Assembly: GCF_016903815.1 (NCBI RefSeq)
Contig: NZ_CP069973.1
From: Escherichia coli
Lineage (GTDB): Bacteria > Pseudomonadota > Gammaproteobacteria > Enterobacterales > Enterobacteriaceae
Reading direction: 5' to 3' (one strand)
Length of the DNA stretch: 64,000 nt
Shown: piece after piece, positions 29,393-54,694 of the stretch
Layout of the letters: each line of letters starts with the position of its first letter
Position numbering within the stretch: the first letter of the stretch is position 1
The notes under the pieces: model-generated
What the model saw: only the letters and a program-made list of their open reading frames with translations
The model's database searches: none
What the model was told of the DNA's origin: nothing
Made by a program: the position numbers and the translations under genes

Positions 29393-29819
29393 ATGTGTGG
29401 ACGCTTTGCCCAATCCCAAACGCGTGAAGATTACCTTGCGCTTCTCGCGGAAGATATTGAACGCGATATTCCCTACGATCCCGAACCTATTGGCAGATAC
29501 AACGTCGCGCCGGGAACCAAAGTCCTTCTGCTCAGTGAACGTGATGAACACCTTCATCTGGATCCGGTTTTCTGGGGATATGCTCCCGGATGGTGGGATA
29601 AACCGCCGCTGATTAACGCCCGCGTAGAAACTGCCGCAACCAGTCACATGTTTAAACCGCTCTGGCAACATGGTCGGGCAATCTGTTTTGCCGATGGCTG
29701 GTTTGAGTGGAAAAAAGAAGGCGACAAAAAGCAGCCTTATTTTATCTATCGTGCTGATGGACAAGCTGTTTTTATAGCCGCGATAGGTAGCACACCGTTT
29801 GAGCGTGGTGACGAAGCCG
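29393..29819 (+). pseudogene. yedK: yedK (SRAP / abasic-site-processing protein) truncated after about codon 142
   Basis: ORF 29393-29890 matches YedK MCGRFAQSQTREDYLALLAEDIERDIPYDPEPIGRYNVAPGTK...IGSTPFERGDEA, then diverges into an unrelated 23-codon tail at the IS-remnant junction; full-length YedK is about 222 aa as I recall. Confidence 0.8.
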
Positions 29820-30101
29820 GAAGAAGTTTTTGTAAGCCCGCTCAGGGTCTTTCAGTGACTGTTGCAATGGCTGTGAGGGCGAATCTTTAAGCCATTGCGT
29901 TTCAGTGGCATTTTTCCACTCAACCAACCAGGAAGCCATTTTCCCGTAAGGGATGTATTTATTACCGGCCTCATGATTCTCATTCTGAAGCGCCAGAGCA
30001 CGATTGAAAACGAAACGACATGCGCCTGCGAAGCGCCTCATTTCACGCTCCTGTTGACCACCTGGTCTTAACCGGAATTTGAATGCCTGTAGTCGTTTCA
30101 T
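29820..30101 (-). pseudogene. tnpB: tnpB N-terminal fragment (IS605 OrfB / TnpB-family)
   Basis: Only about 95 N-terminal residues are recognisable; RuvC-like and zinc-finger regions are absent. Confidence 0.7.
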
Positions 30102-30123
30102 GGGCCAAATCATACTTTGGCCT

Positions 30124-30481
30124 ATGAAAAAAGAAACCGATATCCGACGCGGAAGGCATTGTGTTTTCCTGAAGCATGTTCACCTAGTCTTCGTTACTAA
30201 ATACCGACGTCAGATTTTTGACCATGACGCGACAGAAAAACTACGCACTTACTTTTCAAATGTATGTGCTGATTTTGAAGCTGAACGGGTTGAAATGGAT
30301 GGCGGACCAGATCACGTCCATTTGTTAATTAACTATCCTCCCAAACTGGCGATATCCAGTCTGGTAAACAGCCTCAAAGGCGTATCGAGTAGGTTACTGC
30401 GACGAGATCGACCAGATATTGCAGTCAGGTATTACGACAAAGGCGTTTTGTGGAGTCCTGGCTATTTTGTCAGTAGCTGCA
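30124..30481 (+). pseudogene. tnpA: tnpA (IS200-type Y1 transposase), probably C-terminally truncated
   Basis: HUH motif HVHLL and a tyrosine in GYF are present; the C-terminal tail after VSSC is unrelated to the family; truncation is inferred from recalled family sequences. Confidence 0.6.
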
Positions 30482-30804
30482 TCTTAACGTATCAACTAGA
30501 TTTAATAACAACGATATCCGTACCTAACCGGATATCTAATGTCATAAGCATCCCTTTAATTATCCCCTCAACCTCTTGTAACTTTCCCACTCTTGAGCTC
30601 CACATAGTCCAAACGCCGGATGCAAAAAAATCACACGTGCATTTCTGAAATTGTGATGGAGGAAGATAGTATCAATTATATGTGCTTAGAAACGTCCCCG
30701 ATTAGCGCAGAAGTCACCGGATTGTTCAGACTCAAATAGGTTGAGTATGCCGTATTTATTTTCCAAAATAAAAATCGATGCTGTTGCTCCTTCATAAAAT
30801 ACTT

Positions 30805-31602
30805 TTACTCTCTGGACGCTTTTCTTAGCTCTCTTGGTGTTATCTTAAAACGATTATGGAACCTTTCAGTAAAACGAGAAGGACACTTGTAACCATTTTC
30901 CCTGGCAATCTCGCTGATGGGTTTTACTGTCGTTTGTATAGCAGACAACGCATTATTTAACCTCACGTCGTCCAATATACTTTGAAAACTTACTCCCTCG
31001 CTTGCCAGACGGCGATGCAATGTGGAAACAGAAATGTAGAGATATCTCGCTACCTTGTTTGCTGTCCATTTTGTTCCAGGTTCGGATAGCATTAGGTTAT
31101 AACAACGACTTATTAATGATTGTTTACTATCTGATAAAAGTAAACAATTAACATGATGTGCTCCTAATGAAAGTAGAACGCCCATTGCTAAGTGTTCCTG
31201 AATTTGCGTTGAGAAGCCTCGGGAAATAGATGTTTTTAGTTGCTCCCAACAATATATTAACTCGGGGTTCTGAGGTAAGCAGAAACCTGTCGTGTTACGA
31301 ATTTGATCAGTTATCGCATAAAATTTTTGAAACTTTTCAATTAGATCAATGGGATAATAAAGCATTTCTGCAAGATAAAGACCTGCTTCTGGATAATTCG
31401 CAATATAAAATTCATATCCACAGGGAAATAATATTATCTGATTATTATCAACAGTTAGACTATGCGTCTCCCAATTGATAACTTTTTTTCCCTGACGGAT
31501 ACGACATAAAGCTGGCATAAGAGGCTTAACCCTGTGAATCTCATGATGTTTATGCATCCGTATTTCTTCAATCTTTAGGTTAGTCTTATCTTTTGCCAGC
31601 AT
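30805..31602 (-). CDS. ybcM: AraC-family transcriptional regulator (YbcM-like)
   Basis: ORF 265 aa with a C-terminal AraC-type HTH ([40 protein letters not shown]); resembles the YbcM of the K-12 DLP12 prophage as I recall it. Confidence 0.75.
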
Positions 31603-31611
31603 ACTCTTACC

Positions 31612-32163
31612 CTACTTTATCTCATAAACTGGTGTTATCTCAGCGGTTGCAATTTTATTGGCATTAAGCATATAACCAACTAACGCTCCGCTGGAATTAG
31701 AATCCACAGGAATTTTATCAGTTTTTAGAGCCCATACTTTAAACTGGTAATGATGGGGTTTATCTCCTTTGGGAGGACATGCTCCACCAAATCCTGCATA
31801 ACCAAAATCATTTCGGCCTTGAACAGCACCAGTCGGAAGTTTTGTACCATCACGTCTTCCTGCATCAGCGGGCAAATATGTTACAGTTGCTGGAATATTA
31901 GCAACAGTCCAGTGCCACCATCCACTGCCTGTAGGAGCATCTGGATCATACACAGTTACGGCAAAGCTTTTGGTGCCTTCAGGAGCACCAGACCAGGTTA
32001 ATGAGGGCGATGTATTACCACCTTCACACCCAAATCCAGAAAATACATGAGACGTTGTAAGTTGCTCTCCTGTTTTTATTTCATTACTAGTGACCTGAAA
32101 TGCTGCGGCCTGCGCAGAAAATGTTATGAATGCCAATACACTTGAAACGATAAGTTTTTTCAT
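31612..32163 (-). CDS. ybcL: PEBP/UPF0098-family periplasmic protein (YbcL-like)
   Basis: ORF 183 aa with signal peptide MKKLIVSSVLAFITFSAQA and PEBP motifs (DPDAP, GYAGFGGACPPKGDKPHHYQF). Confidence 0.8.
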   Translation of the reverse strand: MKKLIVSSVLAFITFSAQAAAFQVTSNEIKTGEQLTTSHVFSGFGCEGGNTSPSLTWSGAPEGTKSFAVTVYDPDAPTGSGWWHWTVANIPATVTYLPADAGRRDGTKLPTGAVQGRNDFGYAGFGGACPPKGDKPHHYQFKVWALKTDKIPVDSNSSGALVGYMLNANKIATAEITPVYEIK

Positions 32164-32331
32164 AAAAACCTCATTGTTGTGACCTATCGTTATTTTATTT
32201 GATGTGCCTTGATCTCATTATGCATAAAGGCGCAATGATCGCGCAAATGCAATCATAATTATAAAGGTGCCCCGAACATTAGCCATAATATGCACAAATC
32301 AGATTCCTGTTATCTCAAGGATAATTATTTT

Positions 32332-32664
32332 TTAATGCGGTGCACTTCGTGACAACAAGTTAATGACTAACACACCGGCACAAATCAACATCATGCCTAT
32401 GATAGCTGGCAGGTCCAGTCGTTGACCAAAAAATCCCCAGGAAAGCAAACTAATCAGAACGATACCGACGCCTGACCAGATAGCATAAGCAATCCCTGTA
32501 GGTATATAAGCCAGCGTCTGAGCTAATAACCAGAATGATGCACAATAGCAAATAATTGTGCCAACAGAGGGCCATAACCGTGTAAACCCCTCTGAAAACT
32601 TCATTAAGGTTGTACCAATGACCTCTGCAAGTATTGCGCCACCAAGATAAATATAAGGGTTCAT
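32332..32664 (-). CDS. emrE: Small multidrug resistance (SMR) efflux protein EmrE
   Basis: ORF 32332-32844(-); protein from MNPYIYLGGAILAEVIGTTLMKFSEGFTRLWPSVG is 110 aa and near-identical to EmrE, including the conserved Glu14. Confidence 0.88.
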   Translation of the reverse strand: MNPYIYLGGAILAEVIGTTLMKFSEGFTRLWPSVGTIICYCASFWLLAQTLAYIPTGIAYAIWSGVGIVLISLLSWGFFGQRLDLPAIIGMMLICAGVLVINLLSRSAPH

Positions 32665-45534: not shown

Positions 45535-45622
45535 AAAATCCCGACCCTGAGGGGGTCGGGATGAAACTTGCTTAAGCAAGAAGCACTTAAAAAATTCGTT
45601 ACACCAGGAAATCTGATGTGTT
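45535..45622 (-). ncRNA. dsrA: Small regulatory RNA DsrA (Hfq-dependent; activates rpoS translation, represses hns)
   Basis: Reverse complement reads AACACATCAGATTTCCTGGTGTAACGAATTTTTTAAGTGCTTCTTGCTTAAGCAAGTTTCATCCCGACCCCCTCAGGGTCGGGATTT, including the terminator hairpin. Confidence 0.92.
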
Positions 45623-49914: not shown

Positions 49915-50835
49915 ATGCGTTTCCGCCAGTTGTTACCGCTTTTTGGCGCGCTGTTTGCGTTGTATATCATTTGGGGCTCAACCTATTTTGTCATTCGGAT
50001 TGGCGTGGAAAGCTGGCCTCCGTTAATGATGGCGGGCGTTCGATTCCTGGCAGCCGGTATTTTATTGCTGGCATTTTTGCTACTGCGCGGACACAAACTT
50101 CCCCCGCTACGTCCGCTGCTCAATGCCGCGCTGATTGGCCTGTTATTGCTGGCTGTCGGTAATGGCATGGTGACGGTTGCCGAACATCAAAATGTTCCTT
50201 CCGGCATCGCCGCCGTTGTGGTTGCAACCGTGCCCCTCTTTACCCTGTGCTTCAGCCGCCTGTTTGGCATTAAAACGCGCAAACTGGAATGGGTGGGTAT
50301 CGCCATTGGGCTTGCCGGAATCATCATGCTCAATAGCGGTGGAAATTTAAGCGGCAATCCGTGGGGCGCGATTCTGATTTTAATCGGCTCGATTAGCTGG
50401 GCGTTTGGCTCGGTTTATGGCTCGCGCATTACCTTACCTGTAGGGATGATGGCGGGTGCGATTGAGATGCTGGCGGCTGGCGTGGTGTTAATGATTGCGT
50501 CGATGATTGCGGGTGAAAAACTGACGGCGCTCCCTTCCCTTTCAGGCTTCCTTGCGGTCGGCTATCTGGCGCTGTTTGGTTCGATTATCGCCATTAACGC
50601 TTATATGTATTTAATCCGCAACGTCAGTCCGGCTCTCGCCACCAGCTACGCCTACGTTAACCCAGTGGTCGCGGTCTTGCTGGGTACGGGGCTGGGTGGC
50701 GAAACGCTGTCGAAGATTGAATGGCTGGCGCTCGGCGTAATTGTTTTCGCGGTGGTACTGGTCACGTTGGGAAAATATCTCTTCCCGGCCAAACCCGTTG
50801 TCGCGCCAGTTATTCCGGATGCATCAAGCGAGTAA
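49915..50835 (+). CDS. yedA: EamA/DMT-family transporter YedA
   Basis: ORF 306 aa MRFRQLLPLFGALFALYIIWGSTYFVIRIG. Confidence 0.9.
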   Translation: MRFRQLLPLFGALFALYIIWGSTYFVIRIGVESWPPLMMAGVRFLAAGILLLAFLLLRGHKLPPLRPLLNAALIGLLLLAVGNGMVTVAEHQNVPSGIAAVVVATVPLFTLCFSRLFGIKTRKLEWVGIAIGLAGIIMLNSGGNLSGNPWGAILILIGSISWAFGSVYGSRITLPVGMMAGAIEMLAAGVVLMIASMIAGEKLTALPSLSGFLAVGYLALFGSIIAINAYMYLIRNVSPALATSYAYVNPVVAVLLGTGLGGETLSKIEWLALGVIVFAVVLVTLGKYLFPAKPVVAPVIPDASSE

Positions 50836-51294
50836 ATGAATCCCCTGCGTGTCGATCTGCGCGCTGGCACCTTCGCCGCAGATCCACTCTTCCAGACGCT
50901 CGGTAAGCGCCGCATCCGTCAGCTTCTCGCGCCCGCGTAACGCACATTCCCAGACAATCAATACGCGCCAACCGAGTTCCTGCAAATGGCTGATATCACG
51001 ACGATCGCGCTCGACATTTTTACCTATCTTCTCCAGCCAAAAATCTGTTCGCGTGGCGGGGACTTTAAACAGGTAGCAATGGTGATGGTGCCAGAAGCAA
51101 CCGTGGGCAAATATCACACAGCGAAATTCATCAAGGACAAAATCCGGGCGTCCGGGCAGACTGGCGTCCTGAACGCGAAACGCCAGGCCCTGCCCAGTTA
51201 ACAAACTGGCGAGGCGCTTCTCAATCGCCGTATCACGCGTGGCAATCGCGCGCATATTTTTGCTGCGGGTGGCCTTATCGTGAACGTCGACCAT
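50824..51294 (-). CDS. vsr: Very-short-patch repair endonuclease Vsr
   Basis: ORF 50824-51456(-); Vsr-like region begins M(V)[30 protein letters not shown]; 5' end overlaps the 3' end of dcm. Confidence 0.9.
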
Positions 51295-52693
51295 GTTGTG
51301 CCTCTTGCTGACGCAACGCCACCGCCTGTTTGATTTTTGGCTCAAGCAGTTTTGCCACCGCGGCAAAGACCGGCACGACCACCGAGTTACCGAACTGGCG
51401 ATAAGCCTGAGTGTCCGAAACCGGAATGCGGAATTTCGCTTCTCCCGGCGCTTCAAAACCCATTAAGCGCGCACATTCCCGAGGCGTTAACCGACGTGGG
51501 CGATGTTGCTGATTCAGCGGATCGTCAAAGTCTTTCTCACCCGTTGCCATATCCCAGCCGCGATCGATTAAAATTTCCGCGCCATCTTTGTAATAACGCG
51601 CAGACAGCGTACGCGTGACGCTTTGCGGATTGTTCGGATAAACCATTCCATAACCGAAGCCGTTACCGCGCGCCTGATGTTTTTTCGCATATCGATAGAG
51701 GTACTTCCACAGTACCGGCGTCAGGATATATTTCGCCTCGACCATCGGGTCCAGCAGCTGCGCCAGCGTCACTCGCTGTGCAGGGAAACATTTGCTGATA
51801 TCACGCAGAGTAAAATCGGCTTTCAGATTCAGATCGCGACGAAAACCCACCAGCACGATGCGTTCACGGTGCTGCGGCAGAAAATGTTTGCCGTCGATGA
51901 TTTTCGGATCGTCCGGCCCGTTATCTTCTGCATCAGCCACGTCATAGCCCAGTTCGTCCAGCGTCTGCATGATGATGCGGAACGTTTTACCCTGGTCGTG
52001 ACTTTTCAGGTTTTTGACGTTTTCGAGCACAAACATCGCCGGACGACGCGCGTCGATAATGCGCACCACATCAAAGAACAGCGTGCCCTGGGTATCGCAG
52101 GCAAAACCGTGCGCCCGCCCGAGCGAGTTCTTTTTCGATACGCCAGCCAGCGAAAATGGCTGACAAGGGAAACCGGCCAGTAAAACATCGTGTTCAGGAA
52201 TGTGTTGACGAATATGTTCCGCCGCCGCCTCATCACTCACGCCTTCTTGATGGCTGAGGGTGATGTCGCGGATATCCTCATTAAAATGATGCGTCGCCGG
52301 GTCGCAATAATGGTTGGCTTTATAAGTGCGTACCGCATGTTTGTTCCATTCGCTGGTAAACACGCACTGTCCACCAATCGATTCAAAACCGCGACGGATG
52401 CCGCCAATTCCGGCAAATAGATCGATAAAGCGAAACGCATAATGCGGATGATGTGCCGGTGGTTTGGGTAACAACGTTTGCAGATGGGCGAACTCTTTCT
52501 CACTTAAACGGTGCCATGCCGAGTCATTCGCCAGCGCACGTTTTAAAATTGCCGCGCTCCAGTGATTCTCACCCACACCATTAAGCTGCGCCACCAGCGT
52601 TTTAACATCATAAATTTGCAGCAGTTTCTCCAGCATTGCCTGTGCGGCATTCCCGGTGCTGTATGAATCGGTTACTGATATATTTTCCTGCAT
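51275..52693 (-). CDS. dcm: DNA-cytosine C5 methyltransferase Dcm (CCWGG)
   Basis: ORF 472 aa [33 protein letters not shown] with FxGxGG (DLFAGIGG), PCQ and ENV motifs. Confidence 0.95.
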
Positions 52694-52759
52694 AGATTTA
52701 ACCGGCCATCTGAGATGGCCGACAGGTTAACATAATTACTGCCGTTTAGGGCCACGCGC

Positions 52760-53197
52760 TCAGCCAGCAGGTGAAAACGCATCTATCACCTTGTGATCGA
52801 TACCTTCATTCTCCCCCGCCAGTTCGGCACCGAGCTTCGCCATAAACTCGACTAAAAATTGCGCGTTGTGCTGTGCCAGCTGCTTGCCTCTTGCGGTTTG
52901 CATGGTTTGCGGTAATTTCAGTAACTTTGTCTGGAAATGATCCAGCGCGTAGCGTTTATCATCAAGCGGGCGATGCTGTGCGAACGGATCTTCGCCATCA
53001 AACAGCGCCAAGCCCAATGCCCCTGAAACGGCAAATACGCGCGCCAGGCCAATCGCCCCCAGGGCTTCCAGCCGATCCGCATCCTGGACGATTTTAGCTT
53101 CCGTTGTTAAGGGGGCGATTTGCGCGCTGAAACTGTGAGCGGCAATGGCATGACAAACGGCCTCAATTTTCTCCGCCGGAAATTGCACGAACTCTTC
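52760..53197 (-). pseudogene. yedJ: yedJ (HD-domain phosphohydrolase) lacking its 5' end, which is replaced by IS1
   Basis: Reading frame (E)[25 protein letters not shown]... runs up to the IS1 end at 53198; roughly 85 N-terminal codons are absent (length from memory). Confidence 0.8.
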
Positions 53198-53252
53198 GGT
53201 AATGCTGCCAACTTACTGATTTAGTGTATGATGGTGATTTTAAGGTGCTTGC

Positions 53253-53528
53253 GTGGCTTCCATTTCCATCAGATGTCCTTCCTGCTCCGCTACTGAAGGC
53301 GTGGTGCGTAACGGCAAAAGCACTGCCGGACATCAGCGCTATCTCTGCTCTCATTGCCGTAAAACATGGCAACTACAGTTCACTTACACCGCCTCTCAGC
53401 CCGGTAAGCACCAGAAAATCATTGATATGGCCATGAATGGCGTCGGATGTCACGCCAGTGCACGCATTATGGGCGTTGGCCTCAACACGGTTTTACGTCA
53501 CTTAAAAAACTCAGGCCGCAGTCGGTAA
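53253..53528 (+). CDS. insA: IS1 InsA
   Basis: ORF 91 aa [66 protein letters not shown]. Confidence 0.95.
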
Positions 53529-53950
53529 CCTCGCGCATACAACCGGGCAGTGATGTGATTGTCTGCGCTGAAATGGACGAACAGTGGGGCTACGTCGGTG
53601 CTAAATCACGTCAGCGCTGGCTGTTTTACGCGTATGACAGGATACGGAGGACGGTTGTGGCGCACGTCTTCGGTGAACGCACTCTGGCCACACTGGAGCG
53701 TCTTCTGAGCCTGCTGTCGGCCTTTGAGGTCGTGGTATGGATGACGGATGGCTGGCCGCTGTATGAATCACGCCTGAAGGGAAAGCTGCACGTTATCAGC
53801 AAGCGTTACACTCAGCGCATTGAGCGACATAATCTGAATCTGAGACAACATCTGGCAAGGCTGGGACGGAAGTCACTGTCGTTCTCAAAATCGGTGGAGC
53901 TGCATGACAAGGTCATCGGGCATTATCTGAACATAAAACACTATCAGTAA
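53447..53950 (+). CDS. insB: IS1 InsB (expressed as InsAB' fusion by -1 frameshift)
   Basis: ORF 167 aa ...[110 protein letters not shown]. Confidence 0.93.
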
Positions 53951-53965
53951 GTTGGAGTCATTACC

Positions 53966-54694
53966 CCAAAACCGTATCGCGGTAAACATAAAATTCTGGT
54001 GATCGCCGCGGACGAACGTTATTTGCCGACCGATAACGGAAAACTGTTCTCGACCGGTAACCATCCGATTGAAACGTTGCTGCCGTTGTATCATCTCCAT
54101 GCTGCAGGTTTCGAATTCGAAGTGGCGACCATTTCCGGTCTGATGACCAAGTTTGAATACTGGGCTATGCCGCACAAAGATGAAAAAGTAATGCCATTCT
54201 TTGAGCAGCATAAATCGTTGTTCCGCAATCCGAAAAAACTCGCGGATGTTGTCGTCAGCCTCAACGCAGACAGCGAATATGCAGCAATCTTTGTTCCTGG
54301 TGGTCATGGCGCACTTATTAGTTTACCAGAAAGCCAGGACGTGGCTGCTGCTTTGCAGTGGGCAATCAAAAATGACCGTTTTGTTATCTCCCTTTGCCAC
54401 GGCCCGGCGGCTTTTCTGGCGCTTCGCCACGGCGATAACCCACTGAATGGTTATTCCATTTGCGCATTCCCAGACGCCGCAGACAAACAAACGCCAGAGA
54501 TAGGCTATATGCCGGGTCATCTCACCTGGTACTTCGGCGAAGAGCTGAAGAAAATGGGCATGAACATTATTAATGACGACATCACCGGGCGAGTACATAA
54601 GGACCGTAAAGTTCTCACCGGCGACAGTCCTTTCGCAGCGAATGCGTTGGGTAAACTGGCGGCGCAGGAAATGCTGGCAGCTTATGCGGGTTAA
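53966..54694 (+). pseudogene. hchA: hchA (Hsp31 glyoxalase/chaperone) lacking its first ~41 codons and native promoter
   Basis: Frame resumes at PKPYRGKHKILVIAADERYLPTDNGKLFSTGNHPIE... directly after the IS1 right end; the remainder is colinear with HchA to the stop. Confidence 0.85.

Follow-up and report, generated by a model that had tools for sequence, protein, structure and literature searches.

The window, a 64,000-nucleotide stretch of Escherichia coli DNA, carries the DNA cytosine methyltransferase gene dcm and the mismatch endonuclease gene vsr as an overlapping pair, bordered on one side by a convergent neighbor and on the other by a gene remnant cut by an insertion sequence. The features of the locus, numbered from the first nucleotide of the window, are the following.

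49915-50835, plus strand: yedA, the convergent neighbor, whose final 12 nt are shared with the 3' end of vsr (50824-50835)
50824-51294, minus strand: vsr, encoding the 156-aa very-short-patch repair endonuclease for T:G mismatches (start ATG 51294, stop TGA 50824-50826)
50911-51204, minus strand: divergent core of vsr, differing from K-12 in about 11% of its DNA
51275-51294, minus strand: dcm/vsr overlap, 20 nt, ATGGTCGACGTTCACGATAA, with vsr in the +1 frame relative to dcm
51275-52693, minus strand: dcm coding sequence, DNA cytosine-5 methyltransferase, 472 aa, from ATG at 52693 to TAA at 51275-51277
51301-51306, minus strand: AAGAGG resembling a Shine-Dalgarno sequence, placed 6 nt ahead of the vsr start codon and inside dcm codons 462-464
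52694-52843, minus strand: proximal promoter and 5'UTR region of dcm, retained here and corresponding to the K-12 reporter region (to about -115 upstream)
52703-52721, minus strand: 9-bp hairpin with perfect pairing, CGGCCAUCU-C-AGAUGGCCG, within the dcm 5'UTR (-28 to -10 relative to the ATG)
52760-53197, minus strand: 3' remnant of yedJ (HD-domain protein), 438 nt, cut by IS1; the K-12 alignment stops at 53197
53198-53965, plus strand: IS1, 768 bp, recognized by its sequence and inverted ends, with insA/insB reading away from dcm

The order of the neighbors (yedI, yedA, vsr, dcm, yedJ) is that of K-12, and the 12-nt 3' overlap of yedA and vsr has the same geometry there. Divergence from K-12 at the DNA level amounts to 2.2% in yedA, 1.6% in dcm, and 7.6% across the whole of vsr, the last being concentrated in the core at 50911-51204.

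Both products are readily assigned to their families. Dcm matches PF00145 at 260 bits (cutoff 22; profile positions 1-320 of 324), PF18284, the Dcm N-terminal domain, at 72 bits, TIGR00675 at 351 bits, and the E. coli Dcm subfamily model NF007772 (PRK10458) at 951 bits over residues 1-469 (cutoff 710; E=7e-287), while Vsr matches PF03852 at 130 bits (cutoff 27) and TIGR00632 at 178 bits (cutoff 97.85; E=7e-53). The Pfam matches (PF00145 and PF18284 for Dcm, PF03852 for Vsr) are full length, and because the family-model scores lie far above their cutoffs, the identification of the two proteins is not a matter of chance. Solved structures align accordingly, 3ME5 with Dcm residues 1-472 and 1CW0 with Vsr at E=1.7e-102. 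The vsr frame stays open upstream as far as a TTG at 51456, which yields a 210-aa entry in the mechanical list of open reading frames; the ATG at 51294 is taken as the true start because all orthologues begin M-A/V-D-V-H, because the solved chain 1CW0 aligns from query residue 3, and because the K-12 annotation has the same start.

The C5 methyltransferases share motifs I (FxGxG), IV (PCQ with the catalytic Cys), VI (ENV), VIII (QxRxR), and X (GN), and the corresponding family residues are all present in the Dcm of the window (F93-G98, P176-C177-Q178, E224-N225-V226, Q274-R276-R278, and G435-N436). The protein is identical to the Dcm of K-12 MG1655 at 470 of 472 positions (99.6%), and the two differences, K149Q and E301K, both fall outside these motifs, which are unchanged from K-12 (motif I, FAGIGG, 93-98; motif IV, GFPCQPFS, with Cys177; motif VI, ENV, 224-226; motif VIII, QHRER, 274-278; motif X, GNS, 435-437). 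Vsr is identical to its K-12 counterpart at 149 of 156 positions (95.5%), the substitutions being A2V, V54L, Y57F, T63A, E84D, R103H, and E128A. It retains E25, Q42, D51, H64, F67, W68, H69, and D97, together with M14, I17, W86, and C66, H71, C73, and C117, the last four of which we take to be the Cys/His positions of the zinc site. These 15 key residues are invariant across 20 orthologues ranging from Escherichia to Pantoea and Mixta, and the seven substituted positions vary naturally within the same set. In the literature, the Mg2+ ion of Vsr is coordinated by Asp51 and the main-chain carbonyl of Thr63, His64 or His69 serves as the general base (with His69 essential), Phe67, Trp68, and His69 are inserted into the DNA as a wedge, Asp97 belongs to the conserved residues of the catalytic site, and three zinc-coordinating residues are reported, although their identities are not listed (PMC4081097, PMC2677866). 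The original prediction that both reading frames are full length is thus borne out by their exact coordinates, by the full-length family matches, and by the presence of the motifs and active-site residues.

Codon differences from K-12 are mostly silent in both genes (21 synonymous and 2 nonsynonymous in dcm, 27 and 7 in vsr), which indicates purifying selection. Of 5426 complete E. coli genomes, 5367 contain the 2.1-kb dcm-vsr region, many of them with 100% identity (among these O26 RM10386, O103 RM8385, and strain 7/2); in genomes with 100% identity, PGAP calls both dcm (WP_001157256.1) and vsr (WP_000228683.1) intact. The wider window is likewise 100% identical to ordinary E. coli chromosomes. 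Carriage of the pair on plasmids was considered and rejected, as the 12 "plasmid" records listed include no real mobile copy: 11 of them are chromosome pieces of 0.26-4.9 Mb or Salmonella records of about 9 kb with about 78% identity, and the sole match of at least 99% among those listed is a record of 1.41 Mb. Phage carriage was rejected as well, the only match being an unannotated Salmonella record of 1.5 kb.

The arrangement of the two genes agrees with what had been predicted, namely a vsr start located within the terminal part of dcm, in another frame and with an overlap of about 20 bp; the overlap is exactly 20 nt, in the +1 frame, at 51275-51294. It had also been described as the arrangement known for this pair, and the overlap does match that of K-12 save for one base, K-12 dcm and vsr being described in the literature as partly overlapping genes of one operon. 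Across the overlap and the vsr ribosome-binding region, that single base is the only difference from K-12, being synonymous in dcm and responsible for A2V in Vsr. The AAGAGG ahead of vsr is identical in K-12 and weaker (GAGAAA) in cryptic-clade Escherichia. More broadly, the 20-nt overlap, with the pattern ATGGCnGAyGTnCACGATAA, is kept across five genera: Escherichia (E. albertii, E. whittamii, and four cryptic or GTDB-split species), Salmonella (S. enterica subsp. diarizonae), Citrobacter (three genomes), Klebsiella (a MAG), and Enterobacter (E. soli). The genes are adjacent without overlap, 10-35 nt apart, in Cedecea, Shimwellia, and Buttiauxella sp. B2.

A single mRNA would carry both genes, with vsr opening in the +1 frame over the final 20 nt of dcm and its putative ribosome-binding site, AAGAGG, embedded in dcm; since vsr begins within dcm behind this embedded site, its translation is expected to depend on ribosomes that are translating dcm. 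Dar and Bhagwat are said to have reported in 1993 that Vsr is a separate protein and that translation of dcm is required for its efficient synthesis. The dcm-6 allele, with codon 45 changed to a nonsense codon, eliminates vsr activity as well, according to a statement attributed to that work (Dar and Bhagwat, 1993). Given that only one base differs in the overlap and ribosome-binding region, the K-12 mechanism can be transferred to the window by identity, and translation of the pair is probably coupled here too. A predicted RNA hairpin enclosing the vsr Shine-Dalgarno sequence, the vsr ATG, and the dcm stop has a z of -1.28 against shuffled sequences, and its covariation across 14 species is matched by shuffles in 54 to 424 of 500; because this hairpin is without statistical support, the physical basis of the coupling is drawn from K-12 genetics.

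Taken together, the locus is very probably the orphan dcm-vsr pair of the E. coli chromosome, a methyltransferase with its repair partner, intact and in the K-12 arrangement. From its 470/472 identity to K-12 Dcm, the methyltransferase is predicted to methylate the inner C of CCWGG, and from its 149/156 identity to the crystallized enzyme, Vsr is predicted to nick 5' of the T in T:G mismatches at CTWGG/CCWGG. In the proposed cycle, Dcm would transfer a methyl group to C5 of the inner CCWGG cytosine by way of Cys177 of motif IV, the resulting 5-methylcytosine would deaminate spontaneously to give a T:G mismatch, and Vsr would nick 5' of the mismatched T, whereupon DNA polymerase I and ligase could restore the C. 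Very-short-patch repair of T:G at CTWGG/CCWGG is known to counter the deamination of Dcm-made 5-methylcytosine; it operates in stationary phase according to a statement attributed to a study of Vsr growth-phase regulation, so whether the pair "works" depends on conditions. Dcm is reported to be conserved in E. coli, and 5-methylcytosine at CCWGG has been found by nanopore sequencing in three natural isolates. A search for methylome data on strains of the same haplotype (O26 and similar) returned none. On the basis of sequence, the strain should behave as Dcm+ Vsr+.

Site counts in the window were also considered as a possible footprint of the two enzymes. CCWGG occurs 154 times against 210 expected under a maximal-order Markov model (observed/expected 0.73), and the corresponding ratio for CTWGG/CCWAG is 0.64; these counts were set aside as uninformative, because very-short-patch repair itself shapes the tetramer frequencies from which the expectation is calculated, and any such signal is historical and not specific to the strain.

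The region upstream of dcm departs most conspicuously from K-12. IS1 takes the place of a K-12 segment and links the 438-nt 3' part of yedJ directly to about codon 43 of hchA; it follows from this junction that the 5' part of yedJ, drpB, rseX, yedS, and the 5' part of hchA are missing. A 9-bp target duplication was looked for at the IS1 and not found. PGAP annotates the IS1 transposase in matching genomes and labels the yedJ remnant "missing N-terminus" in strains identical across the segment, and the yedJ-IS1 junction is present in 447 of 5426 genomes. In K-12, a distal drpB-yedJ promoter gives transcripts spanning yedR/yedJ/dcm/vsr, and the Reg-Seq tables list a start at 2,033,449 upstream of drpB as well as a separate presumed dcm start at 2,032,352. 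The former, the distal start, is deleted in the window; the latter lies 35 nt before the ATG and, by K-12 alignment, maps to window position 52728. For this presumed dcm start, the Reg-Seq reporter study describes an architecture of RNA polymerase and a repressor.

The retained proximal region differs from K-12 by 7 SNPs, two of which lie in or beside the Reg-Seq repressor site at -15 to -5. Its TTATGTTAACCTG segment is identical to K-12 and shared by further Escherichia species, while conservation of TTATGTTA reaches Salmonella and Citrobacter. The 5'UTR hairpin, likewise identical to K-12 and kept in other Escherichia species, has a predicted fold of -18.2 kcal/mol (z = -3.6). A simple consensus scan, which may miss a weak promoter, picked out upstream of dcm only the IS1 promoter, on the plus strand, and nothing resembling a sigma-70 site on the strand of the genes. 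A G-to-T change 9 nt ahead of the dcm start codon was considered as a possible weakening of the ribosome-binding site. This was rejected because T is the base in the remaining Escherichia species as well as in Salmonella, which makes K-12 the exception.

These observations bear on the possibility that the genes are intact and under-expressed, such that loss of the distal promoter would leave only a weak proximal one and the strain would show partial CCWGG methylation, scarce Vsr, or both. The deletion of the 5' part of yedJ, of drpB, and of the K-12 start at 2,033,449 is real, the lack of a consensus promoter on the gene strand points the same way, and IS1 supplies no read-through transcription into dcm because insA and insB read away from it. 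Set against this, the presumed dcm start used in Reg-Seq is retained, the sequence elements around it (the TTATGTTAACCTG segment and the 5'UTR hairpin) are unchanged from K-12, with TTATGTTA conserved as far as Salmonella and Citrobacter, and both genes are intact in every inspected genome that carries the same haplotype. Under-expression is accordingly regarded as improbable, and expression of dcm-vsr is likely to proceed from the proximal promoter.

The divergent core of vsr constitutes the second departure from K-12. The vsr tract is sharply bimodal across genomes, with 415 at an identity of at least 99%, 1 at 95-99%, 4943 at 90-95%, and 8 at 80-90%, so that the core in the window represents a minority allele carried by about 8% of E. 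coli genomes. The tract in the window has its nearest counterparts in cryptic-clade Escherichia (E1V33, 93.1%; SCPM-O-B-8794, 92.8%; E. whittamii, 92.2%), and that of K-12 is closest to MOD1-EC7003 (94.1%); for dcm, the window and K-12 alleles are equidistant from all outgroups. The core therefore looks like an old, short recombination patch that has remained under purifying selection, as opposed to a product of decay. As for T63A, three Escherichia species of the cryptic clades and Buttiauxella sp. B2 likewise have A63, and the exchange affects a residue that acts through its backbone only, since T63 contributes its main-chain carbonyl. Although a distinct minority class with about 11% DNA divergence and seven changes, including T63A beside the active site, might be suspected of altering the activity or specificity of Vsr and leaving repair mismatched to Dcm sites, this is most improbable given that all 15 functional residues checked are invariant, that 5 of the 7 changes are natural variants in orthologues from cryptic-clade Escherichia, where the neighboring dcm is equally conserved, that T63 functions through its main-chain carbonyl, and that synonymous changes dominate 27 to 7. 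The minority vsr allele was accompanied by the IS1 deletion in all 4 of the genomes with this allele that were inspected.

With the pair read as intact and probably functional, its architecture offers nothing new, as dcm-vsr is textbook knowledge; the only mildly new points are population-genetic, namely the minority vsr allele and the accompanying IS1-linked deletion upstream. It is conceivable, albeit with only a slim chance of being correct, that loss of the distal promoter and the cryptic-clade-like vsr core, a haplotype of about 8% of complete E. coli genomes, might jointly change the Dcm:Vsr ratio or the growth-phase timing. Were this the case, the rate of the CCWGG 5mC-to-T hotspot, or the interference of Vsr with mismatch repair, would be altered relative to K-12-type strains. 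Beyond annotation, the significance of the locus is small: a Dcm+ strain would yield CCWGG-methylated DNA, which is relevant to cloning, to EcoRII-type and methyl-dependent restriction, and to the calling of 5mC in sequencing, and a Vsr+ strain should have its CCWGG sites shielded from C-to-T decay.

Lastly, the pair can be placed among known systems. K-12 Dcm (b1961) and Vsr (b1960) share with it the yedA-yedJ locus, the protein lengths, the 20-nt overlap in the +1 frame, and the AAGAGG; in comparison with K-12, the window has the other allele class of the vsr core, an IS1 replacing the yedJ-drpB region, and the 7 SNPs in the proximal promoter. The structures 3ME5 and 3LX6 (cytosine-specific methyltransferase) and 1CW0, 1VSR, and 1ODG (Vsr) are nearly identical over their full length to the window proteins, from which they differ by few substitutions, none of them at residues described as catalytic or DNA-contacting. 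The EcoRII restriction-modification system, through M.EcoRII, has its CCWGG target in common with Dcm, which is reported to protect against EcoRII; unlike that system, the locus has no restriction enzyme gene adjoining dcm, and Dcm is therefore a solitary methyltransferase paired with a repair nuclease. The same logic of a 5mC methyltransferase combined with a T:G nicking enzyme is found in Neisseria and in the ScmA/VsrA system of Caulobacter, although the Caulobacter genes are unlinked, and Vsr homologues elsewhere may be either linked or unlinked to C5 methyltransferases.

Divergence of the vsr gene (50824-51294, minus strand) from its K-12 counterpart is concentrated in a patch of approximately 300 bp (50911-51204) that diverges by about 11% from the K-12 allele, even though the flanking dcm and yedA genes are only 1.6-2.2% divergent. 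Among the 5367 complete E. coli genomes having the dcm-vsr region, vsr alleles fall into two sharply bimodal classes, the window type (415 genomes) and the K-12-like type (4943), and the nearest alleles to the patch belong to cryptic-clade Escherichia. The patch appears to be a short tract imported by recombination long ago. Downstream, the 3' ends of vsr and the convergent yedA gene (plus strand) overlap by 12 nt (50824-50835), as they do in K-12, and an intergenic terminator cannot exist between the two genes.

Two features lie on the other side of the pair, upstream of dcm:

52703-52721, minus strand: hairpin of the dcm 5'UTR with a perfect 9-bp stem, CGGCCAUCU-C-AGAUGGCCG
53198-53965: divergent copy of IS1, with flanks at 52760-53197 and 53966-54694

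The hairpin, whose 3' edge is 9 nt ahead of the ATG, has a predicted folding energy of -18.2 kcal/mol (z = -3.6) and is kept across Escherichia species; it may serve in mRNA stability, in translation control, or as a terminator for yedJ. Farther upstream, the IS1 copy connects a remaining 3' portion of yedJ with an hchA gene truncated at its 5' end, and relative to K-12 the 5' part of yedJ, drpB, the sRNA gene rseX, yedS, and the 5' part of hchA are deleted. No target duplication is present at this IS1 junction, which occurs in 447 of 5426 complete E. coli genomes, O26 STEC among them.

Elsewhere in the window, several genes occupy the yedF-fliE interval (29393-32664): yedK, which codes for an SOS-response-associated peptidase and is truncated here; a fragment of a helix-turn-helix gene; a tnpA of the IS200/IS605 type; and ybcM-ybcL-emrE, three genes that belong to the DLP12 prophage in K-12. 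Near 45600, between yodD and yedP, the window lacks an extra ~711 bp, annotated with an IS200C transposase, that is found in E. coli strain 7/2, to which it is otherwise identical. The yersiniabactin high-pathogenicity island has its edge at 61784-64000, where an integrase ORF (62010-62936; its match in strain 7/2 is frameshifted according to PGAP) and ybtS come after tRNA-Asn (61784-61859).

The 20-nt dcm/vsr overlap is retained in Escherichia (with a weak Shine-Dalgarno sequence, GAGAAA, preceding vsr in the cryptic clades), Salmonella, Citrobacter, Klebsiella, and Enterobacter, while Cedecea, Shimwellia, and Buttiauxella sp. B2 have a 10-35 nt gap between the genes instead.
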